Below, in pieces: positions 1 to 27,777 of a stretch of 28,963 bases of DNA. Each line of letters starts with the position of its first letter. The first letter of the stretch is position 1. A program made the translations under genes and the position numbers. The notes beneath the pieces were generated by a model. That model saw only the letters and a list, made by a program, of their open reading frames with translations, made no database searches and was not told where the DNA came from. The DNA comes from an uncultured Oscillospiraceae bacterium. Its GTDB lineage: Bacteria; Bacillota; Clostridia; UMGS1883. The stretch lies in contig CAYTWZ010000002.1 in assembly GCA_964442035.1 (NCBI GenBank), forward strand, positions 2,211 through 31,173, read 5' to 3'.

Positions 1-21
1 TTAAAAATATATCAGAAAAAA

Positions 22-46
22 GCAGTCCCTTAGGGATTGCTTTTTT
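22..46 (+). terminator. Rho-independent terminator of a gene lying upstream of the window
   Basis: The stem GCAGTCCC (22-29) / GGGATTGC (33-40) has 8 bp including one G-U and is followed by T6 at 41-46. It is preceded by an A-run. ATATATCA (7-14) and TGATATAT (50-57) are also complementary, so the palindrome may extend further. Confidence 0.6.
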
Positions 47-65
47 CATTGATATATGGTAAAAT
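37..65 (+). promoter_or_regulatory. Sigma-A type promoter for trmO
   Basis: TTGCTT (37-42), a 17-nt spacer, and an extended -10 TGgTAAAAT (57-65). Confidence 0.45.
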
Positions 66-108
66 ATTCATAATGAACATCACAAAACAAAGACAGCGGG
101 GAGAACAG

Positions 109-816
109 ATGGAGAACACGCTTAAGGTCATAGCCAGAATACACACCGATTTTCCCGAAAAATTCGGTATACCACGCCAAAGCGGACTTGTGCCGGAAGT
201 AGAGGGACGTATCGTTTTTGAACCGTCGTTCAGAAATCCTCAGGCTCTCTTGGGCATTGAGGAGTATTCCCATATTTGGCTGTTGTGGGACTTTTCCCTT
301 GCGCATACTGAGGATTTCCGCCCTACTGTGTACCCTCCCCGGCTTGGGGGTAAGGTGAAAAAGGGCGTTTTTGCCACAAGGTCACCGTATCGGCCCAATT
401 CAATAGGACTGTCCTGCGTCAGGCTGGAAAGGGTGGAGCATGGGCTTGAGGGCCCTGTCCTTGCGGTAAGCGGGGCGGATATGCTGGACGGAACACCAAT
501 ATATGACATCAAACCGTATCTCCCTTATGCGGACAGCCGCCCGGAGGCATCAGGCGGCTTTGGACAGGAGCATATGAATGACGCGATAGCTGTGGACTTT
601 CCTCCGGATATGCTTGAGCTTTTGCCCCAAAGCAAGCGCTCCGCGGCACTTAAGGTGCTGGGACAGGACCCCAGAGCGGCATATAACAAGGGCGATGGCT
701 ATGTTTACGGAATGGAGTTTGCGGGCTTTGATATACGCTTCAGGGTAAAGGACGGACTTCTGACAGTATGCGGAGTTGTGGAAAGCACTCATGGGCAGTG
801 GGATAAGATCAAGTGA
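109..816 (+). CDS. trmO: tRNA (t6A37-N6)-methyltransferase TrmO (TsaA/YaeB family)
   Basis: The translation has the TsaA-like signature (RQSGL..., HIWLLW, ATRSPYRPNSIGLS, DGTPIYDIKPYLPYAD) plus the usual C-terminal domain. I prefer ATG 109, which has GGGGAG 5-6 nt upstream, over the TTG at 37 in the ORF track, because that TTG sits inside the upstream terminator. Confidence 0.85.
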   Translation: MENTLKVIARIHTDFPEKFGIPRQSGLVPEVEGRIVFEPSFRNPQALLGIEEYSHIWLLWDFSLAHTEDFRPTVYPPRLGGKVKKGVFATRSPYRPNSIGLSCVRLERVEHGLEGPVLAVSGADMLDGTPIYDIKPYLPYADSRPEASGGFGQEHMNDAIAVDFPPDMLELLPQSKRSAALKVLGQDPRAAYNKGDGYVYGMEFAGFDIRFRVKDGLLTVCGVVESTHGQWDKIK

Positions 817-829
817 GGTAATGAATTTT

Positions 830-2200
830 ATGATTGAAAAGCTTAAGGGTCTGTACAAGCAGTATCGGGAGCTTATTGCATATGTTATCGTTGGGGGAAT
901 GACTACAGCGGTCAATCTGGCGGTGTATTGGCTGGACAAGGAAATACTGGGCATCAGCCGCGATCCCAATGTGGTGATCGCGTGGATCGCATCGGTGATA
1001 TTTGCTTATTTTACAAATGCGCTGATCGTTTTCCGCAGCAAAAATACCGGCAGGATAAAGGAGTTTTTAAGGTTTGTGAGCAGCCGTTTGGCGTCGCTGG
1101 CGCTGGAGCTTGTGCTGATGAAGGTGTGCAATGACTTTATCGGTCTAGGAGAATGGTTGTCAAAGTACATTGTGGCAGTTGCTGTAATAGTCGCCAATTA
1201 TGTGTTGAGCAAGCTGTGGGTCTTTGCCAAACGGGAGACGGGGACTAAAAAAATGGGAAGCGCGGAAGATAAGGGCGTTATTCTTACAAAAAGCTGGGTG
1301 GTTTGCGCTCTGGCTTTTGTCTGCTGCGCACTTTGGGGCAGCGCCTTCCCTTGTGTAAAGATCGGCTACAGCCTGTTTGAAATATCGGCCTCCCACGTTG
1401 CGTCGCAGGTGCTTTTTGCCGGTGTGCGTTTCACTTTGGCGGGGGTGATGACCGTTATTATAGCCAGTATAGGGCAAAAACGACTTGTTTACCCCAAAAA
1501 CGCCGGAGAGGTAAGGGGAGTATTTAAGCTTTGTCTTTTTCAGACAGTTATACAGTATATTTTCTTTTACATAGGACTTGCCAGAACAGACGGGGTGAAA
1601 AGCTCCATCATTGAGGCATCCAACGTTTTTGTAGCCATACTTATTGCGGCGCTTGTATTTAAGATCGAAAAGCTGACAGCGGTCAAGGTGATAGGCTGCA
1701 TTGTGGGCTTTGCCGGAGTTGTGCTGATAAACTTAGGCAGCGGCGGCTTTGACGCCAGCATGAGCCTGCTGGGCGAGGGATGTATTTTCCTGTCTACGTT
1801 TTCCTATGCAATTTCCTCTGTGGTAATGAAGTCTTACTCCCAAAAATACGATACCGTGATGATGAGCGGGTGGCAGTTCCTTTTGGGCGGAGTGATACTT
1901 ACCTTGGCCGGACTTGCTTTTGGGGGAGGACTGCCGGTGGTATCATCTCAGGGACTGGCTATGCTTTTTTATCTGGCCTTTGTGTCGGCGGCGGCTTATT
2001 CACTTTGGGCGGTCCTGCTCAAGTACAATTCCGTGTCCAGAGTGTGCGTGTACGGCTTTATGAATCCTATATGCGGAGTTCTGCTTTCCACCTTGCTGCT
2101 TAATGAAAGGGGAAGCTTCGGACTTAAGGGACTTGTATCGCTGGCACTGGTTTGTATCGGCATATACATCGTAAACCGTCAGGAAGCAAAATTATGTTGA
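830..2200 (+). CDS. Fused GtrA-like domain and EamA/DMT-family transporter (10-TM permease)
   Basis: The first ~140 aa resemble a GtrA-family 4-TM protein (YVIVGGMTTAVNLAVYW...ANYVLSKLWVF). The rest resembles a duplicated EamA transporter. The frame is open throughout. The start is ATG 830 (GAGGT 10 nt upstream) or ATG 821. An internal ATG at 1253 with GGGGA 8 nt upstream could also start a stand-alone EamA product. Confidence 0.75.
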   Translation: MIEKLKGLYKQYRELIAYVIVGGMTTAVNLAVYWLDKEILGISRDPNVVIAWIASVIFAYFTNALIVFRSKNTGRIKEFLRFVSSRLASLALELVLMKVCNDFIGLGEWLSKYIVAVAVIVANYVLSKLWVFAKRETGTKKMGSAEDKGVILTKSWVVCALAFVCCALWGSAFPCVKIGYSLFEISASHVASQVLFAGVRFTLAGVMTVIIASIGQKRLVYPKNAGEVRGVFKLCLFQTVIQYIFFYIGLARTDGVKSSIIEASNVFVAILIAALVFKIEKLTAVKVIGCIVGFAGVVLINLGSGGFDASMSLLGEGCIFLSTFSYAISSVVMKSYSQKYDTVMMSGWQFLLGGVILTLAGLAFGGGLPVVSSQGLAMLFYLAFVSAAAYSLWAVLLKYNSVSRVCVYGFMNPICGVLLSTLLLNERGSFGLKGLVSLALVCIGIYIVNRQEAKLC

Positions 2201-2224
2201 CATTGGCGCGTTTTGGTGTATAAT
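2197..2224 (+). promoter_or_regulatory. Sigma-A promoter of the BY-kinase/phosphatase operon
   Basis: TTGACA (2197-2202, overlapping the TGA stop of the previous gene), a 16-nt spacer, and TATAAT (2219-2224). This leaves a ~140-nt 5' UTR. Confidence 0.6.
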
Positions 2225-2229
2225 TAAAG

Positions 2230-2323
2230 TAAGGGATTTTTGAATAATTTGCGCTTGCGGCTTAGAACAACTCTTGAGGTTATTTTACTTACAATCAGCG
2301 TTTTAGAATTAATCAGGGCTTCC
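2230..2323 (+). repeat. Short-form copy (R1) of an imperfect-palindromic intergenic element family
   Basis: The left arm 2230-2276 matches 27572-27618 at 35 of 47 positions by my hand alignment. The right arm CAATCAGCGTTTTAGAATTAATCAGGGCTTCC (2292-2323) matches 27709-27740 and the reverse complement of 24476-24507. The central ~80 nt present in the two long copies is absent. Confidence 0.6.
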
Positions 2324-2367
2324 TTAGGATAAATTATAGGGAAAATTATTCCGGGAGATGATAATTT

Positions 2368-3675
2368 ATGGATGAGTATATGGATGAACTTGACGAAACA
2401 ACTATTGATATAAAGAAAATATTTTTGGTTTTGTTTAAAAGTATGCCGGTGATACTTATTGTGACGCTTGTCTGCGGGGCTGCGGCCTATATTTACAGCA
2501 GCCGCTTCATGACTCCGGTATACTCTGCCCGGGTGCGTCTGTACGTAAACAATCAGCAGGGAGATTCGCAGAAAGTGCAGAACTCAGATATCGCAACGGC
2601 CAATTCCCTTGTGCACGGATATGTGGCAATGATAACTACTGACAAGGTACTTCAGGAGGTAGCCTCCAATATCAATCTGGACTATTCAGCCGAACAGCTG
2701 GCATCCATGATAAGCGCCGAGGGTATTGAGGACACGTCTGTGTTTGTGGTGACGGTTCGAAGCACCAACCCACAGCATGCCCAGCAGATCGCCAATGTTG
2801 TTGCAGAAACAGCACCTCCCCTTATACAGGATATCGTCAAGGGTAGCACTGAGATCATTGACCGGGCAAGCCTACCAAAAACACCGGACTCACCCAATGT
2901 TCTTAAGATCAGCCTTATCGGTATGATCATAGGCTTTGCCGCCGGGGTAGTCGGGGTACTTCTGAAGGACAAATTTGACGTTCGGGTCAAAAGCAGTGCC
3001 ATACTTACTGAAAAATTTGATCTGCCTGTGCTGTCTGAGGCCGATAGCTGCGCCGATGATCCTCTTGAGGGCGGCGAAGCCTACAAAAGGATCAATTCCG
3101 GCATTCGGTTTTCACTTCCAAGACGAAAATGCCGGGTTATTGGTGTAACAAGTGCTGTTAACGGTGAAGGAAAAAGTTTTACCGCATCCCGTATGGCTGC
3201 GGAAGCTGCCCGTGCAGGAAATAAAACCCTGCTTATAGATGGTGACATGAGTGGTCATGGCTTAGGTGCGGCATTTGGTTTTGACAAAGGTAATGGACTG
3301 AGCAATGTTATCGCCGGGGATGAGAACTGCGAAGCAGCGGCATTGCATACAGCTGTCAGCAAGAACCTTGATGTAATAACAGGGGGAGATATTCCGCCTA
3401 ATCCGGAGGAGCTGCTTGCCAGCCCCGAAATGAAGTCTATTGTTGAAGGCTATAGGAATGATTACAGCTATATTATAATAGACATGCCTCCCGTGTCTCG
3501 GCAGACAGCGGAAGCGGCAGCCTCTGCAATGGATGGGATAGTCATGGTGGTGCGCGCACGCAAAACCGGCGCTGATGTGATTTCCGATGCATTGAAGTGG
3601 CTTGCCGACGCGGGTGCAAAAAATCTTGGCTTTGTATTCAATGACCCTGTCAAAACCAATGATTTAAAAGGATAA
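2368..3675 (+). CDS. Fused Wzz/chain-length-determinant domain and CpsD/YwqD-like P-loop (BY-kinase family) protein
   Basis: The N-terminal part is a two-TM Wzz-like region. The C-terminal part has Walker A SAVNGEGKS, Walker A'-like LLIDGDMSG, Walker B IIIDMPP, and the PPNPEELL motif. The start ATG is preceded by GGGAGA with a 9-nt spacer. Confidence 0.8.
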   Translation: MDEYMDELDETTIDIKKIFLVLFKSMPVILIVTLVCGAAAYIYSSRFMTPVYSARVRLYVNNQQGDSQKVQNSDIATANSLVHGYVAMITTDKVLQEVASNINLDYSAEQLASMISAEGIEDTSVFVVTVRSTNPQHAQQIANVVAETAPPLIQDIVKGSTEIIDRASLPKTPDSPNVLKISLIGMIIGFAAGVVGVLLKDKFDVRVKSSAILTEKFDLPVLSEADSCADDPLEGGEAYKRINSGIRFSLPRRKCRVIGVTSAVNGEGKSFTASRMAAEAARAGNKTLLIDGDMSGHGLGAAFGFDKGNGLSNVIAGDENCEAAALHTAVSKNLDVITGGDIPPNPEELLASPEMKSIVEGYRNDYSYIIIDMPPVSRQTAEAAASAMDGIVMVVRARKTGADVISDALKWLADAGAKNLGFVFNDPVKTNDLKG

Positions 3676-3688
3676 AGTGAGGTACACT

Positions 3689-4417
3689 ATGGACTATAAG
3701 CTGATTGATTTTCATACACATATTCTGCCCGGCATTGACGATGGAAGCAAAAATGCGGAAACGTCGGTCAAAATGCTCAAAAGACTGGAAGAACAGGGTG
3801 TAAGCGATGTTGTACTAAGCTCCCACTTTTACGCCTCCCAGAACAGCATTGAGGAATTTGCACTCCGGCGAGAAAAAAGCCTCGGCCGTCTTTTGGAAGA
3901 GCTTGATAAGACTCCCGTAAATATCAGGCTTCACCTTGGGGCGGAGATATTGTTCATGGATTACATTGACCGGGTAGAGGGCCTTAGTGAGCTTGCCATA
4001 GGCAAAACCAAATATATTCTGTTGGAGATGCCCTTTGTCAAGTGGAGCGAAAGGATGCTGGGAACAGTCTACAAGGTCATAGGCAACGGCTACATTCCTG
4101 TTATTGCCCACTTTGAGCGCTACATTCCCATACAGGGAAAGCTGGATTATATATATGAGCTAAAACGTATGGGCTGCATACTTCAGATGAATGCCGGCAA
4201 TTTTAAAGGCTTTTTCCGGAAGGGGAAGGCGTTGAAGTTTTTTGAAGATAATACTGCATCGCTTTTAGGAACAGACTGCCACAATCTGGACAGCCGACCT
4301 CCCGAGCTGAAGGCGGCCTATGAAGCAATAGGCCAGAAGCTTGGGGAAGATGAACTTCGGCGCATAAGCGCTGTAGGGGAAAAAATCCTCGAAAATTCCC
4401 GGACAGTGTATAACTAA
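3689..4417 (+). CDS. PHP-family protein-tyrosine phosphatase (CpsB/YwqE type)
   Basis: The N-terminal sequence is LIDFHTHILPGIDDG, with SSHFY, HFERY and GTDCHN metal-site motifs. I prefer ATG 3689 (GTGAGGT upstream) over GTG 3677. Confidence 0.85.
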   Translation: MDYKLIDFHTHILPGIDDGSKNAETSVKMLKRLEEQGVSDVVLSSHFYASQNSIEEFALRREKSLGRLLEELDKTPVNIRLHLGAEILFMDYIDRVEGLSELAIGKTKYILLEMPFVKWSERMLGTVYKVIGNGYIPVIAHFERYIPIQGKLDYIYELKRMGCILQMNAGNFKGFFRKGKALKFFEDNTASLLGTDCHNLDSRPPELKAAYEAIGQKLGEDELRRISAVGEKILENSRTVYN

Positions 4418-4544
4418 ACGAAAGATGTCCCCCGTTGGCGGGCGATCCTTTCGTTTTCGGGGAGATCAATCTCCCACCGAAAACGCCCCATGACGGGCTT
4501 TCAGCCCTTATTGAACTAAAAACAGGAGAACATTCGGTGGGAGA
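4409..4544 (+). promoter_or_regulatory. Conserved structured intercistronic element, copy A (candidate attenuator or cis-regulatory RNA)
   Basis: 4409-4513 aligns with 25391-25499, including identical 20-nt and 19-nt blocks. Pairings are P1 4416-4424/4448-4456, hairpin 4452-4466/4470-4485, and hairpin 4495-4507 followed by TTATTG. There is also a perfect 12-nt complement between 4470-4481 and 4533-4544. Confidence 0.55.
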
Positions 4545-4577
4545 AAGGCTTTGTATTTTTAAAAGGAGGTATTTGAC

Positions 4578-5339
4578 ATGGGTGACGATTTTACCCTCAG
4601 TGACAAGCAAATTCGTGAAAACCGAAATCGGGAGTACCGCAAAGATCCGCCGGAGCTTATCTTAGTCATAATATGCGTGGCCGCTGTAGTGACGGGTGTG
4701 TTTTTCCCGGGGGAAATGTATGATTCGGTGTTTGGTACCGAGCTTATACTCAGCAATCTCATCCGCGTGTTCTTGGCTGTACTTGGTTTTATATTCGGAG
4801 TGCGAATTATTGTTCCTAACCATAAGATCACTTATATTTTTGGCGGAATAGTGATTCTTGTGTCCGTCATACTGGCCTTTTCTGCTACGCCTGAGGCCAT
4901 GATTGCGTTTGCGATGGGCTTCGCGTCTATGATCGTATCTGCGGCAAGACCGTCGGTGCTTGTAATTACGGCAGCTGCTGTGATACTTGTGGAAATAATA
5001 AAGCGGCTGTATATTATATTCGGCCCCGGACAAAAGGCTTCCCGTGGGGGAAAGGTATTGACCCGTGTATCTGCAATCTTGGGCGGGCTTTCCATATTTA
5101 TTGCGCTGCTGATGCCTATGGTCGATCAGGAGTATCCCGGCATGGCAACGGTCGTGCTTTGGATAGTTGGGCTGATATGCGCCGCCGGCGGGTTTATTAC
5201 AGGAGTTGTTGTAAAGCAGCCGTCATATAATACCGGGGACTGGCTCCGGCTCATAGCTTCAGCGGTGGGTATGGGAATACTGCTTTCCTGTATTACTACA
5301 ATATTCGGCCTCCCCGTGCTCGACTTTATGAGGTGGTAA
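4578..5339 (+). CDS. Polytopic membrane protein of unknown family (~7 predicted TM helices)
   Basis: The ATG at 4578 has a strong SD AAAGGAGGT 7 nt upstream. The sequence has hydrophobic segments throughout. I recognise no motif in it. Confidence 0.6.
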   Translation: MGDDFTLSDKQIRENRNREYRKDPPELILVIICVAAVVTGVFFPGEMYDSVFGTELILSNLIRVFLAVLGFIFGVRIIVPNHKITYIFGGIVILVSVILAFSATPEAMIAFAMGFASMIVSAARPSVLVITAAAVILVEIIKRLYIIFGPGQKASRGGKVLTRVSAILGGLSIFIALLMPMVDQEYPGMATVVLWIVGLICAAGGFITGVVVKQPSYNTGDWLRLIASAVGMGILLSCITTIFGLPVLDFMRW

Positions 5340-5427
5340 GGAATAATAAAAGACTTCCTTTCGGACTCTTGAGATAAGGTCTGAATTGAATACTAAAAAA
5401 CTTTGTTTATTAAGCCGCAAATGAACA

Positions 5428-5469
5428 GACCCCCAAAGGTTAGACCTGAAAATCTAACTTTTGGGGGTC
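5428..5469. terminator. Long hairpin between convergent genes
   Basis: GACCCCCAAAGGTTAGA (5428-5444) pairs with TCTAACTTTTGGGGGTC (5453-5469), giving a 17-bp stem with one mismatch and an 8-nt loop. There is no clean U-tract on either strand. Confidence 0.5.
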
Positions 5470-5501
5470 ACGTCATCTGATAGGGAGTATTTTATTGCCT
5501 G

Positions 5502-7034
5502 TTATTTAAAATACGCCAGCGCTGTCTGCATCTGTATGTCAACTACCTTGTTCATATTGTATTCGTAGTCGTTCAGCGCCATGGCTGTGTAGAAATCTAC
5601 CTCACCGGTGATCTCGATTTCGCTGTACCGCTGGAATACCCTTACAGCCGCCTCAGTGCGGCTGTTGTATATTCCGTCCACTTCGCTGTCGGCCAGCAGC
5701 TTGAGGGCGTTAAGCCTTTGCTCCACCCCAAGCCTTGTGCTGTCGGACTCCAGCATGTCTGGGGCAAGTAATATGTCTGCAAAATCCTCCTCATTTACGG
5801 GAGAAACCTCGTTTTCAACCGCGTAATCCGGGGTAAGTCCTGTGCCGTGGATGCGCTGATCGGAGGGGCTGTAATATTCGCCTATCGTGAACTTCAGCCC
5901 GCTGCCTGTGGGGGTATGCATTATTACCTGCATACAGCCCTTGCCAAAGGTTTTGGTTCCCATCAGCTTTGCGGCATTGCGGCTTTGAAGAGCCATTGCC
6001 AGAAATTCGCTGGCGGATGCGGTGTTTTCGTTTACAAGCACCAGCATTTCGTAGCCCGGAGCGTTGTAGTTTTCGGAGTACAGATCCACATTGTTTGCTT
6101 CATCCCGATATTTGAGCTTGCCGATAATTCCGGCTGAGATCAGCTTACGGGCTACCTCAATGGCCGCGTCGATATCTCCGCCTCCGTTGTCCCTCAGATC
6201 GATTATAACATTGTTTATGCCCTGATTTTTGAGCTGGTCAATGTAGCCGTCAAAGTCCTCAGGCAGAGATGCGGTGAAGGAGTCAACATCGATGTAACCG
6301 ATTTTGCGCCCGGCCTCGTTTTCAATGATATCCATGGTGGAATGACTTTCGGTGACCTTTTGGCGTACAGCACGTACATACAAGAGCTCATCGCCGCGAA
6401 CAATGCCTATATCCACAAAGGTGCCTTCCTCGCCAATGATCAGCTCGCGTGTGGCGGCAGGCTCGTAATTGGAGGTGTCAACTCCGTCCACCGATACGAT
6501 CTGATCGCCTACCTGAATGCCGGCCATCTCGGCTGAGCTGCCGGAAAACACATTCTCGATAACTGTGCCGCCCTTTTGTATAGTCATAGTTACACCTATG
6601 CCGTAAAATGAGGCATTGTAGTAATCAAGCTGCTGGGAGTAGAGCTCGGGAGGGTAATACTCCGCATACTCATCCCCAAGGGTCTTTACCATAGTTTCAA
6701 GGGCAAGATCAATGTCAAACCGACCACCGTTGTCAATGGTGGCACAGATCACGTTGTAAAGCAGGTTTTCGTCAGACACTCCGTAATAGTAGTTGTCGGC
6801 CAAAAGGTGGGCGTAATCCCTGATAAGGTTCTTTTGGCGGAATGCGGAAAGGGCATTTTTGAGCTTGGGATTGTCACTCTCTATTTCTGTGCTTTCCGTA
6901 ATTGCTGGAGTATCCGCCTCGGCTTCTTCGGTAGCGGTAGGTGTGTTGACCTCCGTGCTTGCGGGGCTCTCGGCCAAGACAGGGGTAAAAATCAGCGTCA
7001 GCGCCAGCAGCAGTGATAAAAGTTTGTTTTTCAT
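5502..7034 (-). CDS. S41 family C-terminal processing peptidase with PDZ domain and C-terminal peptidoglycan-binding domain
   Basis: It has a signal peptide, a PDZ region (GIQVGDQIVSVDG), the S41 core (DLRDNGGG...NENTASASE...TFGKG), and a PG_binding_1-like tail (GIYNSRTEAAVRVFQ). Its ATG overlaps the upstream stop as ATGA. Confidence 0.9.
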   Translation of the reverse strand: MKNKLLSLLLALTLIFTPVLAESPASTEVNTPTATEEAEADTPAITESTEIESDNPKLKNALSAFRQKNLIRDYAHLLADNYYYGVSDENLLYNVICATIDNGGRFDIDLALETMVKTLGDEYAEYYPPELYSQQLDYYNASFYGIGVTMTIQKGGTVIENVFSGSSAEMAGIQVGDQIVSVDGVDTSNYEPAATRELIIGEEGTFVDIGIVRGDELLYVRAVRQKVTESHSTMDIIENEAGRKIGYIDVDSFTASLPEDFDGYIDQLKNQGINNVIIDLRDNGGGDIDAAIEVARKLISAGIIGKLKYRDEANNVDLYSENYNAPGYEMLVLVNENTASASEFLAMALQSRNAAKLMGTKTFGKGCMQVIMHTPTGSGLKFTIGEYYSPSDQRIHGTGLTPDYAVENEVSPVNEEDFADILLAPDMLESDSTRLGVEQRLNALKLLADSEVDGIYNSRTEAAVRVFQRYSEIEITGEVDFYTAMALNDYEYNMNKVVDIQMQTALAYFK

Positions 7035-13775: not shown

Positions 13776-16700
13776 TTATTTGCTTACTGACGTCAATGCG
13801 CATGAGGATGAGCCTGAGTACGTGCCGCCGGTCACTATTCCGTATGGCTCTTTCCCCGTGAAAGCGCCACCTGTTACGCTCCCTCCGTAATTTAATGTGT
13901 ATGAGCCGCTTTTGATTTCAGGTGTTGATATAAATACCCATGCGTATGCTTTTGACGGTACATATGTCACAATTTCATCCCCGCTTGAATTTGTTAGCTT
14001 GAACGCCTTACCCGCTGATTGTGATGAAAAGCCGCCTGAACCGCCCCACATACCGCTGCCGGAGGAACTTGACGAAGTCACAACGTAATACTGCTTCGCG
14101 CTGTCGGGAGTTATCGCCATATCGGATGAACCTGCGCCAATTACAGTACCTCCTGTAATTGAAAGTGTGTCGCCGTTGTTATCGCCTATGTCAAACACGC
14201 CGTTCCCGCCGCTTGTGGGGCCGTTTACAAGAAGCGTACCGCCCGAAATTAGAGCGCTGCCGTTGCTGTCAAAGCCATCGCCCTCTGCTTCGATATAGAC
14301 CAGTCCGCCGGATATTTCAACATATCCGTATGTCGACGAATCCTCACCGCCCCAGTTGGGACCGCTGTTCCAGCCTTGATTGCCGCCGTTCCAGCCTTGA
14401 TTGCCGCCCGGCCCCGCTAAAAGCTCAACTGACAAAGCGGAAACGGTATCAATGTCATATGCGCTGTCTGTCGGCTTGTCGCCTGCCGCGTTTACACCGT
14501 CGTCAGAGGAAACGATTCTTGTTTCACCGCCTAAAACATATATATTTGCGGCTTCTATGCCTTCATAGCTCTTTGTAATATTTATATCGGCGTTATCGCT
14601 TATATAAAGATAGCTGTCGCCGTGTATCCCATCGTCGCCTGTGGCGGCGGTTATGCTTCCGCCGATTATGCGCACAGTATGGTTTGAATGAACGGCGTCA
14701 TCATAGGTGTTTATATTGAAAGTGCCGCCACTGATATAAACAAGGTTGCCGCCCTTTACGCCCTTACAGCTGCTCGCCGCCTCGGGATTGTTTGCCGAAA
14801 CGGTCTGGGGCGCACCGCCGTATGCGGTCAAATCAAATGTGCCGCCGGAAATATTTGTTATGTTCTCGCTTTGTATACAATCCTGCTGGGAATTTACAGT
14901 GATATTGCCGTCTGTAACAACAACATTTCCGGTCCCGCACTGTATTCCGTCCTCGCTACAGGTTATGTCAAGAGTTCCTCCGTTGATATCAATTTCACCC
15001 TCTACATAGGCGAGAACCGTTGCTCCGTCTGTGTCGTATATTACCTCATTTACTTGAATTCCCTCCAAGGCTTTGGTGATCGTTATATTTGCGCCGCTAC
15101 CTATTGTAATGTTTTTTACCGCTTTGATTCCGTCCTCACCGGCCGACGCGACAATTGTGCCGCCTGTGATCGCCACACAGCCATCGCCCTCGGCAGGCGT
15201 GCCACTTGTTAACGTCGTGTCCTCAAGGTATGCAATGCTCGAAGCATTAGCCTTGATAGCTTCACCCGCGGCGTTGATCGTTATGTCGCCGCCAGTGATC
15301 GTGAGAAGAGTATCAGCTTGTATGCCGTCCCCGTTTGATACAGTGCCGTCCGTGCCTGTTGTTGTTTTTGAGGTTATATTTATTGTGCCGCCGTTTATCG
15401 TAACAGAACCGCCGGAAACGTATTCATTTGTCAGCGCGTCAATTTCAGGATCCTGATCGGACTTGATTCCGTCTCCTCCGGAAACAACCGTTATCGAATT
15501 GTTTTTCTTTGTGATTTTTACGGATTGGTCACCCTTTATGCCGTTGTTTGCGGCAGTAACATTTAAATCGCAGACGCCAATTTCGATGTCGTTCTTACAG
15601 CGTATGCCGTTCCCGTAATCGGATATTGCGTTAAGCGTTCCCTCACCCTTTATTGTAAGGTCATTCTTGCTGTAAATTGCTGTTGTATCCCCGTCCGATG
15701 AAGCTGATCTGAATGTGCTTTCGTTTTCTGTGGGAACAAGTGTTACCGTTCCCTTTAAACCGTCAAACGCGTTCCCCGTTGTGCTTGTTACGCTTACACC
15801 GTCAAGATTGACGGTGATTAAATCTGTCTTTTCGGAGGAATTAACTATTATCTGTCCATCGTTTAATGTGCCCTCAACGGTATATTCTCCCGCCGCCGTA
15901 ATTGTAACGGCAGTTCCAGATACGGTTACATTTTCAATGCCATCGGCATTCACGCTGTCACCCATAAGATGTATTATTCCGTCACCCGCGGAAATTACGG
16001 GATCCTGTGGAGATTCCTCCTCAGTCGCTTTGGTGGTGACGGTAACAGTGATATCGCCTGTTATCTTGGTTATTCTGTATGTATTTTCCCCAAGCTCGGA
16101 GGGCAGCTTTAGATTTTTGTAATTTGTTGACGGGGTCACTTCAACAGATTCGATCTCGTAGCCCTCATCCGCGGTAATCTTAAAATTCACCTGTCCGTTG
16201 CCGGAGGTATCGATTTCGCCGGTGTCGCCGCTTCGCGCGTATGCCTCTGTAACAAACTGCTCATCGCCTGTAAACACCTGCGTGTCAGACACGGCTATTG
16301 ATGCGTGGGAATCGGTCTCAAATGTCGCTTTAAAGCCCTCCGCTGTCGTTGCCTTGGTGGTGACGGTAACAGTGATATCGCCTGTTATCTTGGTTATTCT
16401 GTATGTATTTTCCCCAAGCTCGGAGGGCAGCTTTAGATTTTTGTAATTTGTTGACGGGGTCACTTCAACAGATTCGATCTCGTAGCCCTCATCCGCGGTA
16501 ATCTTAAAATTCACCTGTCCGTTGCCGGAGGTATCGATTTCGCCGGTGTCGCCGCTTCGCGCGTATGCCTCTGTAACAAACTGCTCATCGCCTGTAAACA
16601 CCTGCGTGTCAGACACGGCTATTGATGCGTGGGAATCGGTTTCAAATGTTGCTTTAAAGCCCTCCACAGGAACAAACACATCACTTAGCGGCTCAAGGGT

Positions 16701-17033
16701 CAGTACGCCGTTTTCTGTTTTCCAGAAAAAAGCTTTTAAAACATCGCCGTCATCTTTTAATGTGCTGTTAAAGACAAGCGACTTGTTGCCGGTTCCGTTT
16801 GTTTCTTCGGATACCACAATGCCCTTGAGCTGCCCTAAAGAGTCATATACCGCAACAATTCCTTTCCCGCTTTCGTCTGAGCCTTTGCTTACGACCATTG
16901 ATATATTTCCGTTCTCGTCAATATCCAATGAGGTAATTGAGCAGGCAAGCTCTGCCGCCTCCGCGGCAATTGAAAAAACCATCAGCGATAAAACGATGAT
17001 AAAACATAGAACCTTTGTGGAAATGGATCTCAC
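13776..17033 (-). CDS. Secreted Cthe_2159-like beta-helix carbohydrate-binding-domain protein with duplicated N-terminal domains
   Basis: A signal peptide is followed by two near-identical 108-aa domains. A long run of GDGI(K/Q/H)xD, DDGIH, YEGIEA, DDGVNA and GDGFDSNG turns follows, which is typical of the PF14262-type parallel beta-helix. The GTG start has GAGGAGGA 6 nt upstream. Confidence 0.7.
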   Translation of the reverse strand: MRSISTKVLCFIIVLSLMVFSIAAEAAELACSITSLDIDENGNISMVVSKGSDESGKGIVAVYDSLGQLKGIVVSEETNGTGNKSLVFNSTLKDDGDVLKAFFWKTENGVLTLEPLSDVFVPVEGFKATFETDSHASIAVSDTQVFTGDEQFVTEAYARSGDTGEIDTSGNGQVNFKITADEGYEIESVEVTPSTNYKNLKLPSELGENTYRITKITGDITVTVTTKATTAEGFKATFETDSHASIAVSDTQVFTGDEQFVTEAYARSGDTGEIDTSGNGQVNFKITADEGYEIESVEVTPSTNYKNLKLPSELGENTYRITKITGDITVTVTTKATEEESPQDPVISAGDGIIHLMGDSVNADGIENVTVSGTAVTITAAGEYTVEGTLNDGQIIVNSSEKTDLITVNLDGVSVTSTTGNAFDGLKGTVTLVPTENESTFRSASSDGDTTAIYSKNDLTIKGEGTLNAISDYGNGIRCKNDIEIGVCDLNVTAANNGIKGDQSVKITKKNNSITVVSGGDGIKSDQDPEIDALTNEYVSGGSVTINGGTINITSKTTTGTDGTVSNGDGIQADTLLTITGGDITINAAGEAIKANASSIAYLEDTTLTSGTPAEGDGCVAITGGTIVASAGEDGIKAVKNITIGSGANITITKALEGIQVNEVIYDTDGATVLAYVEGEIDINGGTLDITCSEDGIQCGTGNVVVTDGNITVNSQQDCIQSENITNISGGTFDLTAYGGAPQTVSANNPEAASSCKGVKGGNLVYISGGTFNINTYDDAVHSNHTVRIIGGSITAATGDDGIHGDSYLYISDNADINITKSYEGIEAANIYVLGGETRIVSSDDGVNAAGDKPTDSAYDIDTVSALSVELLAGPGGNQGWNGGNQGWNSGPNWGGEDSSTYGYVEISGGLVYIEAEGDGFDSNGSALISGGTLLVNGPTSGGNGVFDIGDNNGDTLSITGGTVIGAGSSDMAITPDSAKQYYVVTSSSSSGSGMWGGSGGFSSQSAGKAFKLTNSSGDEIVTYVPSKAYAWVFISTPEIKSGSYTLNYGGSVTGGAFTGKEPYGIVTGGTYSGSSSCALTSVSK
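16031..16665 (-). repeat. Near-perfect tandem duplication (2 x 324 bp, in frame) inside the large secreted protein gene
   Basis: 16031-16341 is repeated at 16355-16665 with an offset of 324. The only differences I see are two C/T changes near 16316/16640 and 16325/16649. Confidence 0.9.
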
Positions 17034-22054: not shown

Positions 22055-24451
22055 TCAATCCTCCAATATCTCGTCCACACACATATCCGCCAGCTCACGG
22101 GCGTATTCTTCACAGTACCCTTGGCTGGTTATATTTATGGAAGAGAAACCCTCCGATGGAGTCAGCAGTACCCAGCCCTTGTCAAAGCTCAGTTTTATAC
22201 CGTCGGTCAGATCCATAGGCTGGCTTTGATGACGGCTGTATATTTTGTTCATAGCTTGGGAGGTTTCGGCGCAGTCTACACCGGTGTGTATCATGTGGGT
22301 CTCGGGCAGACGGGCAAGAAGCTCGGACAATGAAGCGTTTTCGCTTTTCATAAAGTCAATCAGCTTGATCAGCGCGCCCACCGCATCAAAGGCGTAGATA
22401 AACTGGTCATACAGCATGGGGTCATCGGATTTGGTCAGCTCGCGCATAAGCTCCGGCGGAGAATTACGGGTGCGTACCACTACAGCACCGTATTTTTCAG
22501 CCAAAAGCTCAACTCCCGAAGGCGCTGATATCGGAACGTAGATTTTGGCGCCCCTGTGGGTATGCATTACAATCATAGCGGACAGAAGAGTGTATATATC
22601 ACGGCTGATTATTCTCCCGCTAATATCGATGAGGGTCAGTTCCTGACAGGACGGGTCGATAACAGCTCCCAGATCCGCGCCTTCTTCCTTTACGGCCTGG
22701 GCGATCTCATGAGGGCCTTTGTCAGAGGTCTCCACATGGCAGTTGAGATCATTGCCGGCGCTTTTCAGCAGACGCTTTGCCCAGTCGGAGCTGCCTCCTA
22801 CCAGCAACTTGTAGCCGAGGCTTTGCTTTTTAGTGGAGTTGATAAGGTTTTTGAGATAAAACAGCTTGTATTCAAAAAGGTACTCCGCATCCTTAATGTT
22901 TTCGCTGCTCCCCCGGGAAAAGTCCTCCAGTCGAAAGCTGCTTTTAAGCCTGTTCATCAGCTCGGACTGCGGGTCTGCACCGTTGGGACCTATGAGCTTG
23001 ATTTCTCCGTAGTCAGCTCCTCCCCGGGTATATACGTTTACCGCCGCACCGCCCCACAGCCGATGAAAGCGGACTCCGCTTCGGCTTACTGGAAGAGGCT
23101 GTTCCCCAAAGTCAAAGATTTTTGCTCCTGTGGAGAGCACTCCGCCGATGAAGGCGGATTTCAGCATTGCCGCCGCCGGTGAGCCGCTGTCGGATACGCC
23201 TACGCCGCAGCCATCCGCTGCTGTGCCAAAGGCTGCACCAAGGAGGGTCATTGTTTCGGGAGTTATTTCGCTGCCAAGCTCTCCCTGTACTCCGGCAGAG
23301 CTCCATATCCGTCCTCCCCCTACGCTACCCCATATAAGGTTGGAATGCTGCACGGTATCCGGAGGAAGCTCCTTATGTGGCCATATACGGACACCGGGCT
23401 TTACGGCACAGTTTTCACCTACCACGCTGCCGCTGCCTATCACTGCCTGCTCGTATACGGCGCTCCCGCGTTTAAGGACAGCTTCGCGGTCTATTACCGC
23501 ACCTCTAAGCTGAGCGTTTTCCTCCAGTCTGCATCCGTCAAGGGCAATGCCCCGCTTGATGCCGGATCCGGCACAGAGAGTGACCCCGCGGCCTATTACG
23601 CTGTAGGGCTCTACTCTGGAACCACGTAGGATACGGCTGCGCCCTCCGATAAATGCCGGCGGGCGCAGTACGGCTCCCTGCTGTATTTCGGCCCCGCTTT
23701 CAACCCAGATGCCCTCACTGTATTCCTCCGGCATGTTCAGCGCGGTTTTCCGATCAAGTATATCCCCGTGACAGCGGCGGTAGTCCCCAAGGCTCCCGAT
23801 GTTGCACCAGTATCCGCCGTGGGGCATACCGTATATACCGCGTTTGTCATTAAGCAAAACCGGAAATATGTCTCGTATCAGGTCAGTAAAAATTCCCTCG
23901 GGTATCAGTGTCAGCAGCTTAGGCGAGAGCACTCCCACTCCGCAGCTTATATATGAGGATGCAACAAGCCCCCAGTCCGTACTTTCGAACAGCCTGTTTA
24001 TCCGTCCTCCTTCTCCGATGGTCATTGTCGCCCGGTGAGGATATGGGGAGGCGGGTGCCAGCGCAATGGAGGCCAATGCTTTGCGGCTTTTGTGGAAACG
24101 AATAAGAGACGTAATGTCCATGTCCGTTATCACCGAGCCGCTCATTGCAACAAAGTCCCCATCTACAAAGTCCCAGGCGTTTTTTAACGCTCCGGCAGTA
24201 CCCAAGGGTGTATCTTCATTAAAATACGTCAGTCTAACTCCTAAGGCCGTACCGTCACCGAAAAATTCGCGTATTTTGCCTGCCATGTACCCTTCTGTTA
24301 CGGCAATTTCAGTTATGGCGTGCTTCTTCAGTAGCTTTATACAGTGCTCCATTATGGGCGCACCCATAATATTGAGCATAGGCTTTGGCCTGTCACAGGT
24401 GAGCGGCCTAAGCCGCGTGCCCTCGCCGCCGGCCAGAATTATAGCTTTCAC
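22055..24451 (-). CDS. Sugar-phosphate nucleotidyltransferase (GlmU/ManC-like with LbH domain) fused to a phosphohexomutase-like domain
   Basis: The N-terminal motif is LAGGEGTRLRPLT..PKP. Hexapeptide-repeat segments follow, then a four-subdomain PGM/PMM-like C-terminal half. The GTG start has AAGGGGGA 7 nt upstream. Confidence 0.8.
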   Translation of the reverse strand: MKAIILAGGEGTRLRPLTCDRPKPMLNIMGAPIMEHCIKLLKKHAITEIAVTEGYMAGKIREFFGDGTALGVRLTYFNEDTPLGTAGALKNAWDFVDGDFVAMSGSVITDMDITSLIRFHKSRKALASIALAPASPYPHRATMTIGEGGRINRLFESTDWGLVASSYISCGVGVLSPKLLTLIPEGIFTDLIRDIFPVLLNDKRGIYGMPHGGYWCNIGSLGDYRRCHGDILDRKTALNMPEEYSEGIWVESGAEIQQGAVLRPPAFIGGRSRILRGSRVEPYSVIGRGVTLCAGSGIKRGIALDGCRLEENAQLRGAVIDREAVLKRGSAVYEQAVIGSGSVVGENCAVKPGVRIWPHKELPPDTVQHSNLIWGSVGGGRIWSSAGVQGELGSEITPETMTLLGAAFGTAADGCGVGVSDSGSPAAAMLKSAFIGGVLSTGAKIFDFGEQPLPVSRSGVRFHRLWGGAAVNVYTRGGADYGEIKLIGPNGADPQSELMNRLKSSFRLEDFSRGSSENIKDAEYLFEYKLFYLKNLINSTKKQSLGYKLLVGGSSDWAKRLLKSAGNDLNCHVETSDKGPHEIAQAVKEEGADLGAVIDPSCQELTLIDISGRIISRDIYTLLSAMIVMHTHRGAKIYVPISAPSGVELLAEKYGAVVVRTRNSPPELMRELTKSDDPMLYDQFIYAFDAVGALIKLIDFMKSENASLSELLARLPETHMIHTGVDCAETSQAMNKIYSRHQSQPMDLTDGIKLSFDKGWVLLTPSEGFSSINITSQGYCEEYARELADMCVDEILED

Positions 24452-24475
24452 CGTTGTTTCCCCCTTTTGTTTTCA

Positions 24476-24646
24476 GAAAACGCTGATTGATTCTAAAATG
24501 CTGATTGGCGGGAAAATTTTTCTCGCAGTAAGGCAAAAAGCGCATGATTACTTGCTGTATTATGGGCTTCTTTAACCGAACTGCGGGGGAAATAACCGTC
24601 AAGCAGCGTTTTAAGCCGTAGACGTGAATTAATCAGAGCTTCCTTG
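24476..24646 (-). repeat. Long-form copy (R2) of the imperfect-palindromic intergenic element family
   Basis: The reverse complement aligns end to end with 27572-27740. Its arms carry GCTGATT x2 (24482-24488, 24500-24506) and AAGCAG/AATCAG (24601-24606, 24630-24635) in inverted orientation. It ends 24 nt before the GTG of the nucleotidyltransferase gene. Confidence 0.6.
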
Positions 24647-24796
24647 ATATTATTTGCCGGGAGAAAAATCTTATTCCAGGAAAACTACGGATCCATACAT
24701 TTGATATAGTTCGGTTCCATCCATGCGATTTTTGCTTTAACTTTTTTGCCCGCAATCAAAAATACAAATAATACAAAAAAAATTACAAGATTGTTC

Positions 24797-24825
24797 TTGA
24801 CAATCATATGACCGTGTGATATAAT
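24797..24825 (+). promoter_or_regulatory. Sigma-A promoter of the HTH-NfeD-flotillin operon
   Basis: TTGACA (24797-24802), a 17-nt spacer, and an extended -10 TGaTATAAT (TATAAT at 24820-24825). AATCATAT occurs twice around it (24802-24809, 24823-24830). Confidence 0.65.
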
Positions 24826-24852: not shown

Positions 24853-25395
24853 ATGTATGTGCTTCCCGGAACAAATATTGAAGTAGGGGAGCTGTCCTTT
24901 GACAGCGTTAATTCGCTGCTGAATTCAATTTTTCTCACAGGAGGACTGGTGCTTAGTCAGGTGGCAGGAATGACTGACTGTGCTCCACATGTGGTGCAGA
25001 ATTGGGTCAAAAGAGGGTTTGTTTCGCCGCCGGTGAACAAGAAATACAGCAAGCGGCAGTTTTGCAGAATAGCCTTTATCAACTTTTTGAAGGATGTGAT
25101 GCAGATCGACAAGGTCACGGCGCTGATGGAATATATTAATGGGGCGCTGGATGATGAAAGCGATGATCTGGTGGATGACTGTACGCTGTACTGCTACTTT
25201 GCTCAGGTAATAGGACAGCTGACGGACTTCCGCCGGGACACCATAGAGTCTGTGGTGGAAAAGTCGGTCTCCGGAGGAGGAGACAGCTATATCCAAGTCA
25301 GGCTCAAGGCCACACTTATAGTTATGGCCACCTCTTACGGAGCGGCAATGCTTCGAAGCAGGGTCAATTTGCTTATAAGTCAGTTGGATATATAA
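24853..25395 (+). CDS. Putative MerR-like HTH protein of the DUF1836 (YkrK-like) type
   Basis: The segment LSQVAGMTDCAPHVVQNWVKRGFVSPPVNKKYSKRQFCRIAFINFLKD fits the pattern I remember for DUF1836 proteins (t..mi.nyvK......P..KkYs..h......i..LK). The SD is GAGGG, 7 nt upstream of the ATG. Confidence 0.5.
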   Translation: MYVLPGTNIEVGELSFDSVNSLLNSIFLTGGLVLSQVAGMTDCAPHVVQNWVKRGFVSPPVNKKYSKRQFCRIAFINFLKDVMQIDKVTALMEYINGALDDESDDLVDDCTLYCYFAQVIGQLTDFRRDTIESVVEKSVSGGGDSYIQVRLKATLIVMATSYGAAMLRSRVNLLISQLDI

Positions 25396-25499
25396 CTAAA
25401 CGAAAGATGTTCCCGACTATATGGGCGGTGAGCGACCCTTTCGTTTTTCGGTGGGATATCAATCTCGAAACGTTGAAAGAGGGCTTTCAGCCCTTATTG
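25391..25499 (+). promoter_or_regulatory. Conserved structured intercistronic element, copy B
   Basis: It aligns with 4409-4513. P1 is 25398-25406/25438-25446. The central hairpin carries the conserved GATATCAATCTC apex. GGGCTTTCAGCCCTTATTG lies at 25481-25499. Confidence 0.55.
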
Positions 25500-25523
25500 G
25501 AAAAAAAGGGGGTCAAGGGGATA

Positions 25524-26184: not shown

Positions 26185-27561
26185 ATGACTGTTTTAATTC
26201 TGATCTGCGTTATCGTTGTGCTGCTTTTGTCAACGATCATGCTCATCGTCAGCCGTTACCGCAAATGCCCCTCTGACAAGGTAATGGTCATCTACGGTAA
26301 GGTGGGGGCTAACAGCGACGGCACAAGCCGTAGCGCCAAGTGCATCCACGGCGGCGCGGCCTTTATCTGGCCGGTGATCCAGGCCTACGAATATCTGGAT
26401 CTTACGCCTATTTCCATAAGCGTTGATCTTAAAAACGCACTGTCACGGCAAAATATACGTATTGACGTACCAAGTCGCTTCACAGTAGGCATATCCACAG
26501 AAAACGGCATTATGCAGAATGCCGCCGAAAGGCTTTTGGGACTTAAGCTGTCCGAAATTCAGGAGCTTGCCAGGGATATCATATTCGGTCAGCTACGTCT
26601 TATCATTGCGACTATGGATATTGAGGAGATCAATACCGACCGTGATAAGTTCCTTGAGGCTGTGAGCCGCAATGTGGAAAGCGAGCTTAAAAAGATCGGT
26701 CTGCGTCTCATCAACGTAAACGTAACCGACATCACTGACGAAAGCGGATATATCGCTGCTCTTGGTAAGGAAGCGGCAGCCAAGGCCATCAACGATGCCA
26801 AGCAGTCCGTTGCGGAAAAGGATCGTGACGGCGCCATTGGTCAGGCCAACGCCCAGAGGGATCAGCGTATCTCCGTATCTGAAGCAAACAGCCTTGCCAT
26901 AACCGGTGAGAACGAGGCTCAGATAACCATTGCCAAGTCTAACGCTGTTCGCCGTGAGCAGGAGGCCGAAGCTCTTCGCAGGGCTACTGCCGCCGAAAAA
27001 ATTCAGGAGGCAAAAGCCCTTGAGGATGCCTACGGTGCCGAAAAAGAGGCCGAAATGGCCCGTGCCGCCAGAGAGCAGGCCACTCTTGAGGCTGATGTGC
27101 TCGTAAAGGCCGAGATCGAAAAGCGTCAGAAGGAAATCGCAGCCGCCGCCGAAGCGGAGCAGTTGCGTATTAAGGCACAAGGCGAGGCGGACGCCATATT
27201 TGCAAAAATGGCCGCCGAGGCAAAGGGTATGCAGGAAATTCTTACCAAGCAGGCGGAGGGCTTTGAAAAGATCGTTGCCGCCGCCGGAGGCAACGCATCC
27301 GATGCCATGAGGCTTATGCTTGCCGACAAGATGGAGGAGCTTATGCGCATACAGGTCGATGCCATCAAGAATATTAAGATCGACAAGGTCACTGTATGGG
27401 ACAACGGTAAGGAGGGCAATTCCACAGCCAACTTTATCAGCTCTATGGCTAAAGCTGTGCCTCCTATGAGCGAACTGTTCGACATGGCGGGCATGAAGCT
27501 GCCGGAGTATCTTGGCAAGAAAAAGGAAGCGCCCGCCGCCGACGCGGAAGCAGTGGGGTAA
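26185..27561 (+). CDS. Flotillin-family SPFH protein (FloT/YqiK-like)
   Basis: It has an N-terminal TM hairpin, an SPFH domain, long Ala/Glu-rich coiled-coil (EA) repeats, and the flotillin C-terminal region. GGAGGA lies 8 nt upstream of the ATG. Confidence 0.9.
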   Translation: MTVLILICVIVVLLLSTIMLIVSRYRKCPSDKVMVIYGKVGANSDGTSRSAKCIHGGAAFIWPVIQAYEYLDLTPISISVDLKNALSRQNIRIDVPSRFTVGISTENGIMQNAAERLLGLKLSEIQELARDIIFGQLRLIIATMDIEEINTDRDKFLEAVSRNVESELKKIGLRLINVNVTDITDESGYIAALGKEAAAKAINDAKQSVAEKDRDGAIGQANAQRDQRISVSEANSLAITGENEAQITIAKSNAVRREQEAEALRRATAAEKIQEAKALEDAYGAEKEAEMARAAREQATLEADVLVKAEIEKRQKEIAAAAEAEQLRIKAQGEADAIFAKMAAEAKGMQEILTKQAEGFEKIVAAAGGNASDAMRLMLADKMEELMRIQVDAIKNIKIDKVTVWDNGKEGNSTANFISSMAKAVPPMSELFDMAGMKLPEYLGKKKEAPAADAEAVG

Positions 27562-27571
27562 AGCTGTAACC

Positions 27572-27740
27572 TAAGGAAACGCTGAATAATTTACGCCTAC
27601 GGTTTAAAACAAACCTTGGCGATTAATTCACCGGCAGCTCGGTTAAAAAGCCGAGCTGCCGCAAGTATTCATGTGCCTTTTGCCTTGCCTCGAAAAAATA
27701 TTCTTTGCCAATCAGCATTTTAAAATTAAACAACGCTTCA
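27572..27740 (+). repeat. Long-form copy (R3) of the imperfect-palindromic intergenic element family
   Basis: It starts 11 nt after the flotillin stop. It aligns with the reverse complement of 24476-24646 and with both arms of 2230-2323. It contains a perfect 11-bp hairpin, CGGCAGCTCGG (27632-27642) / CCGAGCTGCCG (27651-27661). Confidence 0.6.
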
Positions 27741-27749
27741 TTTAATATC

Positions 27750-27777
27750 TTGACAGGTCATCAAAATGTGATATAAT
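27750..27777 (+). promoter_or_regulatory. Sigma-A promoter of the LRR protein gene
   Basis: TTGACA (27750-27755), a 16-nt spacer, and an extended -10 TGaTATAAT (TATAAT at 27772-27777). Confidence 0.6.

Follow-up and report, generated by a model that had tools for sequence, protein, structure and literature searches.

An uncultured Oscillospiraceae bacterium carries a probable MITE-like repeat insertion between the promoter and first gene of a Wzz-kinase/CpsB operon

The kinase/phosphatase leader

The window, meaning the whole 28,963-nt stretch of DNA analysed here, derives from an uncultured Oscillospiraceae bacterium and includes a BY-kinase/phosphatase operon. Beyond these two genes it carries trmO, a GtrA-EamA transporter gene, an S41 peptidase gene, murI, gpmI, tpiA and pgk. 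It also encodes a sugar ABC transporter, an NTP-transferase/phosphomutase fusion, a DUF1836/MerR protein, an SPFH protein and a BspA-type LRR protein. The genes are mostly housekeeping genes and the window is not a polysaccharide locus. A copy of a palindromic repeat, R1, lies in the operon leader, where the following features are found.

2197-2224, + strand: sigma-70-type promoter TTGACA-16-TATAAT (12/12) of the Wzz-kinase/CpsB operon, overlapping the end of the EamA gene
2230-2325, + strand: R1, short-form repeat copy located by repeat finder, alignment and nhmmer profile
2230-2277, 2278-2291 and 2292-2325, + strand: left arm, 15-nt spacer (AGGTTATTTTACTTA) and right arm of R1
2355-2370, + strand: RBS GGGAG and ATG (2368) of the Wzz + BY-kinase gene
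2368-3675, + strand: ORF of the Wzz + P-loop tyrosine-kinase gene (435 aa), assigned by domain match
3677-4417: CpsB-type phosphatase gene, next after the kinase ORF

The promoter and the ATG reported by the first-pass annotation are both present, and the promoter is the sole 12/12 match within positions 1-6000 of the window. R1 is ~95 nt long with TA at 2230-2231 and at 2324-2325. Its termini are inverted (TAAGG...CCTTA); these ends, the right arm and the ~15-nt spacer can all be read in the sequence as first described. Given a perfect promoter ending 6 nt upstream, conserved in position and sequence at the orthologous locus in a relative, R1 very probably forms the initial ~95 nt of the transcribed Wzz-kinase/CpsB leader. 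The transcription start would fall near 2231-2233. This agrees with the earlier proposal that R1 is almost certainly transcribed in the sense orientation as a leader.

A family of palindromic repeats

Further copies of the repeat lie in the window, on the adjoining contig L001 and in one other genome. L001 is a short-read contig of the same organism which extends past the left end of the window by 2.3 kb, with window position 1 corresponding to L001 position 2285. The copies and the signals next to them are as follows.

L001 2118-2289, + strand: R0, long form, its last ~3 bases being window positions 1-3 (83-87% identity with reverse-complemented R2; nhmmer E 1e-58)
17-46, + strand: terminator read from the sequence, a hairpin and T-run (AAAAAAGCAGTCCCTTAGGGATTGCTTTTTT) directly 3' of R0
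24468-24652, - strand: R2, long form
27570-27745, + strand: R3, long form
27750-27777, + strand: promoter (12/12) of the BspA-type LRR surface protein gene (ATG 27864), downstream of R3
L006 ~3838-3937, - strand: short-form copy in the MAG of another uncultured Oscillospiraceae bacterium

The comparison of R1 with these copies establishes that it belongs to the same family. A recount of its left arm (2231-2277) against R3 (27572-27618) gives 35/47 identical positions, the figure originally counted by hand; by the repeat finder the identity is 73% over 52 nt. The right arm (2292-2325) is related to R2 and R3 by both repeat finder and alignment. A leave-one-out nhmmer profile, built from the three long copies only with R1 withheld from the model, served as the control for chance. 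In ~225 kb of DNA it recovers the R1 left arm at 2225-2285 (E 9e-6) and the right arm at 2292-2326 (E 2e-5). The two arms are collinear on the + strand of R1, while the minus strand reaches just 12.8 bits. On this evidence R1 is a true short-form member of the palindromic repeat family. It aligns as the long form minus ~75-85 nt of centre, which bears out the initial description of a short form without an ~80-nt central part.

The first-pass annotation counted three copies. There are at least four in the source genome (R0, R1, R2 and R3 within 31 kb), and the copy in L006 makes five. R0 matches the reverse complement of R2 at 87% over 132 nt by BLAST and at 83% by global alignment. It starts 2 nt past the stop codon of an SLH/DUF4901 gene and, since a canonical terminator lies directly 3' of it, belongs to the 3' UTR of that upstream gene. 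R2 aligns best to R1 and R3 as its reverse complement in a four-way alignment. Some 12 nt separate the end of its right arm from the RBS of the NTP-transferase/phosphomutase gene (22055-24451, GTG 24451), which is on the minus strand. Short-read contigs of the source organism break inside R2, as is expected of repeated DNA.

R3, which includes a perfect 12-bp hairpin (GGCAGCTCGGTT/AGCCGAGCTGCC), starts 9 nt behind the SPFH/Band_7 stop codon (gene 26185-27561), and 4 nt separate its end from the -35 box of the promoter that serves the LRR gene. It does precede the LRR gene, as first noted; however, it lies upstream of that gene's own 12/12 promoter and hence outside the LRR transcript. The L006 copy belongs to a branched-chain amino-acid ABC transporter operon. 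It sits there between the genes for a LivJ-like binding protein and a LivH-like permease, with ~20 nt between it and the RBS of the latter. Just upstream of this copy, after the binding-protein gene, L006 contains two further hairpins (3940-4060, - strand). One is formed by GGGCTGCCATG...CATGGCAGCTC, and the other has a 17-bp stem (CCCTTAAAATTTGCGG...CCGCAAATTTTAAGGG) and may represent another repeat family.

All five copies are intergenic, and intergenic DNA makes up 8% of the window. The common direction noted for the original three with respect to the gene downstream extends to 5/5 copies (two-sided p about 0.06), each oriented like local or downstream-gene transcription. A block of 12 extra bases (ACGCCTRCGGYT), present in the left arm and absent from the right, allows the orientation to be assigned. 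Apart from this block, the left arm and the reverse-complemented right arm align with each other in R0, R2, R3 and the L006 copy, and more weakly in R1.

The copies range from 95 to 177 nt, with a long form of ~170-177 nt and a short form of ~95 nt. The central ~75-85 nt missing from R1 are likewise missing from the L006 copy, the other short form. Terminal inverted repeats of ~45 nt form the arms, with AGGAAGCGCTGATTAATTC as the end sequence of the family. Each arm contains two AATCAGCG-type motifs, giving four per element at conserved spacing. Stop codons occur in all frames of all copies, leaving no coding capacity, and a census by way of translated peptides was rejected for this reason. 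In the five-copy alignment mean column identity is 68%, the arm blocks being near-invariant and the centre variable. Copy-to-copy identity is just 70-83%, which indicates that the family is old. TA flanks both ends of R0, R1, R3 and the L006 copy but not of R2. The G+C content of the four copies from the source genome lies below the 49% of the window (R1 36%, R3 39%, R2 42%, R0 46%), whereas the L006 copy equals it at 49% and is hence not AT-rich.

Few copies are visible elsewhere. The right-arm pattern has eight matches in 185,579 GTDB species-representative genomes, of which only that in L006 is genuine. The same pattern gave a single chance match in JGI metagenomes and another in IMG/VR, the latter in coding DNA, and the left-arm pattern gave none in IMG/VR. 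R2 has no blastn match among plasmids and phages. No Rfam family is reached at the gathering score anywhere in the window, and relaxing the threshold to E up to 10 for the R1, R2 and second-repeat regions returned only noise from miRNA and snoRNA models. Within a census covering the window, L001, the relatives' contigs and the pattern scans (n=5 copies), the family is restricted to one lineage. Two of the chance right-arm matches, at L007 3860-3900 in a Deltaproteobacteria MAG and L008 885-925 in a Thermodesulfobacteriota MAG, are surrounded by a shared sequence, AAAATGCAAAATTAGCAATCAGCATTTTAAAATTAA. This may be a repeat proper to those two MAGs, which are not related to each other, and has no relation to the R1 family.

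The window contains other repeats as well. A second intergenic family has two copies.

4405-4525, + strand: first copy of the second family
25384-25510, + strand: second copy of the second family

These are ~115-125 nt long, ~75% identical to each other and unrelated to the R1 family, with no match in Rfam. Each begins exactly at a stop codon (TATAACTAAACGAAAGATG...), forms a CGAAAG...CCTTTCG stem and a GGGCTTTCAGCCC hairpin, and precedes a gene of ~215-250 aa without a Pfam match. In L013 and L015, contigs of relatives, just ~16 nt separate the DUF1836 gene from the next gene, which gives the second family, too, the look of an insertion. The copy at 4405-4525 contains the end of the short-read contig L001. 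Within coding DNA, a 300-nt direct repeat with 99% identity and 324-nt spacing (16024-16323 and 16348-16647) lies in a minus-strand gene for a 1085-aa protein with a Cthe_2159 domain (13776-17033), and is best read as a very recent internal domain duplication. A 55-nt stretch occurs twice with 100% identity, 606 nt apart (28303-28357 and 28909-28963), in the BspA-type LRR gene. It points to long near-identical repeat modules in this gene, which runs off the window.

Empty orthologous sites and RNA folding

Orthologous sites were examined in related Oscillospiraceae, reached through the syntenic EamA and NTP-transferase neighbours. These relatives are distant, with 58-74% amino-acid identity. 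At the locus corresponding to that of R1 in L027, TrmO, EamA and Wzz are 59%, 74% and 58% identical to those of the window and the gene order is the same. The source organism is poorly sampled, and the best full-length homologue of the window BY-kinase is just 33% identical. The EamA-Wzz spacer measures 70 nt in L027 vs 167 nt in the window, and the difference of 97 nt corresponds to the length of R1. The promoter itself is conserved, aligning as TTGACT-16-GTGTATAATTA in L027 vs TTGACA-16-GTGTATAATTA in the window. Downstream of it L027 has AAGGAGG in a 33-nt leader, a GTG start codon and no R1. In L018 the corresponding promoter (TTGACT-17-TATAAT) is followed by a ~35-nt leader, again without the element.

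When R1 is removed from the window and one TA is retained, the junction reads TATAATTAAAGTAGGA; the L027 counterpart is TATAATTATAATAGAA. The R1 site is therefore suggestive of a TA target duplication. The genes upstream are arranged differently among these genomes. In the window GtrA (N-terminal) and EamA are fused in one 469-aa ORF (776-2200), while EamA is a stand-alone protein of ~312 aa in the relatives. The EamA gene directly follows TrmO in L027, and a methyltransferase gene lies between the two in L018.

The sites of R2 and R3 are also empty in relatives. At the R2 site, the spacer between the divergent NTP-transferase and DUF1836 genes is 136-149 nt in L013, L014 and L015 vs 401 nt in the window. 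R2 is absent from all three, and the DUF1836 promoter there aligns almost base for base. At the R3 site, the Band_7(SPFH)-LRR spacer of L015 and L016 holds an ordinary hairpin and T-run, and R3 is absent. A profile search of ~155 kb of the relatives' DNA found no copies vs four per 31 kb here. As aligned, R1 is an insertion relative to its orthologous loci in L027 and L018, and gain would be more parsimonious than loss in several lineages.

The DUF1836/MerR-like gene promoter (12/12, window 24797-24825) is near-identical in L013, L014 and L015 despite 62-68% protein identity. Its spacer contains a near-palindrome (ATCACATGGTCACATGAT in the relatives), which looks like a putative MerR-type autoregulatory operator.

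As RNA, the elements fold into long imperfect hairpins, which is inevitable for inverted repeats. R2 and R3 are more stable than shuffled sequences (z = -4.6 and z = -3.7, respectively). R1 by itself is not (-20 kcal/mol, z = -0.9), and neither is the complete leader, 2231-2385 (z = +0.6). The sense strand of R1 reaches -18.7 vs -11.0 kcal/mol for the antisense strand, via G-U pairs, but in 4/5 copies the antisense strand is equally or more stable. Strand asymmetry was thus inconsistent among copies and was rejected as a sign of sense-strand RNA function. Sequestration of the RBS by R1 was likewise rejected, as the predicted fold leaves the RBS unpaired or weakly paired. A promoter inside the element was rejected too, as just a weak 9/12 match was seen on the R2 antisense strand, not conserved in the other copies. 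No outward promoter is readable at the element ends.

Comparison of the five sequences yields an unfavourable RNAalifold covariation term of +1.92. On the named structure 87.2% of cells are paired vs 85.6% with partners shuffled. Double-sided changes occur at five pairs, a value reached by 37/500 shuffles, and no significant covariation is found among the five copies. This analysis gives no positive support for RNA-level selection on the repeat structure.

These results bear on the possibility that the repeat spread as mobile DNA and then became a domesticated RNA module, the retained copies being selected in the sense orientation. Transcribed hairpins at operon junctions and at 5' or 3' ends would then, for instance, stabilise mRNA, be processed by RNase III or RNase Y, or cause partial termination. 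The co-orientation of 5/5 copies with transcription is consistent with this, as are the starts of R0 and R3 just behind stop codons. The L006 copy, between binding-protein and permease genes, occupies the classic position of REP elements in ABC transporter operons. ERIC, REP and Correia hairpins act in such ways, an effect on mRNA stability or processing having been shown for ERIC and proposed for REP. The stability of R2 and R3, the advantage of the R1 sense fold and the double-sided pairs, as weak hints of covariation, point in the same direction. However, the equal or greater stability of the antisense fold in most copies and the unfavourable covariation term argue against RNA function, and the pairing is accounted for by column conservation. 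R1 and its leader are no more structured than shuffles, and n=5 is too small for a significant orientation bias. Hence, a domesticated RNA module is unlikely. If it were correct, the 5'-terminal hairpin of R1 would set the half-life or processing of the BY-kinase/phosphatase message. This would add a new post-transcriptional layer to capsule/exopolysaccharide control that is missing from relatives.

It was proposed at first that the repeats share a cis-regulatory role for envelope genes. The element would be an envelope/polysaccharide platform on which AATCAG-N-AATCAG binds a regulator, or an RNA antitermination or processing site. The regularly spaced motifs, the strong promoter ahead of R1 and the neighbouring genes, among them those for an SLH protein, the BY-kinase, a sugar-nucleotide enzyme and the LRR surface protein, would suit such a role. 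Nonetheless, the comparisons do not sustain it. The orthologous operons of relatives retain the promoter without the element, R0 and R3 lie at gene 3' ends, the former in a 3' UTR ahead of its terminator and the latter upstream of the LRR promoter, and the L006 copy belongs to an amino-acid transporter operon. No NusG-like or other candidate regulator is seen among the genes of the window, which are largely housekeeping genes and not those of a polysaccharide locus. A conserved leader RNA would be present in orthologous leaders, yet those of L027 and L018 lack the element, and it would show covariation or belong to a curated RNA family, neither of which is found here (no Rfam family). A dedicated envelope platform is therefore highly improbable.

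A probable MITE-like insertion and its known counterparts

The reading that best accounts for these observations, with a probability of roughly 75%, is that R1 is a MITE-like insertion of the ordinary kind, lodged between a promoter and a gene that were there before it, and not a dedicated envelope control element. R1 would be a decayed, internally shortened and non-autonomous copy of a lineage-restricted small palindromic interspersed repeat. It would have inserted 5-6 nt downstream of the -10 box, ahead of the pre-existing short leader. An insertion into an existing promoter-leader would for that reason be transcribed as the 5' end of the mRNA. Mobilisation was presumably in trans by a transposase, a TA-duplicating IS630-like enzyme being the best guess because of what is established for RUP and Correia-type elements. 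No transposase or parent IS with matching ends was found in the part of the source genome covered here. Any effect on expression would probably be a by-product of the imperfect 5'-terminal hairpin predicted for R1 (around -19 to -20 kcal/mol), as opposed to a dedicated regulatory circuit. Such a hairpin could change mRNA stability or serve as a target for a double-strand RNase.

Bacterial MITEs are described as non-coding, AT-rich elements of <200 bp with terminal inverted repeats, TA ends, target duplication and multiple copies (PMC2229807). The repeat is shorter than 200 bp and non-coding, has terminal inverted repeats and occurs as dispersed copies, and genomes differ in whether the R1, R2 and R3 sites are filled or empty. 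In anatomy it agrees with what has been published on bacterial MITEs (PMC2229807, PMC10969869). The 2024 MITE review does not mention Clostridia, Firmicutes, Oscillospiraceae or Ruminococcaceae (PMC10969869). The element type is well known, while the family itself appears undescribed, with no Rfam model and no match in the collections searched.

As a MITE-like family, the repeat would be the first small interspersed repeat family described for this uncultured Oscillospiraceae lineage, apparently with a second one nearby. The R1 locus offers a clear natural case of such an insertion, with the repeat between a conserved promoter and the gene that it serves. Such repeats are also relevant to annotation and assembly, as short-read contigs break in them and they can be mistaken for regulatory RNAs.

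A REP/BIME-type origin, with two inverted REP units mobilised by a RAYT (an IS200/IS605-like Y1 transposase), is the least credible reading: the element is palindromic with two inverted arms, its copies are intergenic and close behind stop codons and a unit is repeated inside each arm, but the ~45-nt arms are not G+C-rich and start with TAAGG, the TA ends would better suit a TA-duplicating transposase and no RAYT gene lies in the part of the source genome covered here.

Among known systems, REP/BIME elements resemble the R1 family in being palindromic, in lying just past stop codons and in occurring between genes of ABC transporter operons. They differ in their units: the account of REP super-families in PMC3733652 gives 20-40 bp, G+C-rich sequences with GTAG or CGTC heads, whereas the arms of the R1 family are longer and carry no such head.

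The MITE-like interpretation of the R1 family has further counterparts, although the likeness to Correia, ERIC and RUP elements is one of architecture only, an analogy and not family membership. Correia elements (CREE/NEMIS) of Neisseria are, in the passages devoted to them in PMC2229807 and PMC2649163, small, non-coding and intergenic with terminal inverted repeats and TA ends. The same passages describe a long and an internally shortened form, of 155 and ~107 bp in Neisseria compared with ~175 and ~95 nt here. They also describe frequent co-transcription with neighbouring genes as hairpin RNA and positions between promoters and genes, in which the R1 family is probably alike (PMC2229807, PMC2649163). 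The hosts of Correia elements belong to another phylum; the R1 family has no readable outward promoter, and few copies of it are visible.

ERIC/IRU elements occur in enterobacteria and Yersinia. In being imperfect palindromes of ~100-170 nt, in transcription with flanking genes, in orientation bias and in size variants due to internal segments they recall the R1 family (PMC2229807). ERIC has orientation-dependent effects on the stability of flanking mRNA (PMC2229807). Sequence and host are different, however, and the antisense strand of the R1 family folds as well or better. The RUP element of pneumococcus, which is mobilised by IS630-Spn1, shares a Gram-positive host, a length of ~100 nt, terminal inverted repeats and intergenic location with the R1 family, which may also resemble it in inserting at TA (PMC2229807). 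It differs from the R1 family in having an identified parent IS with matching ends.
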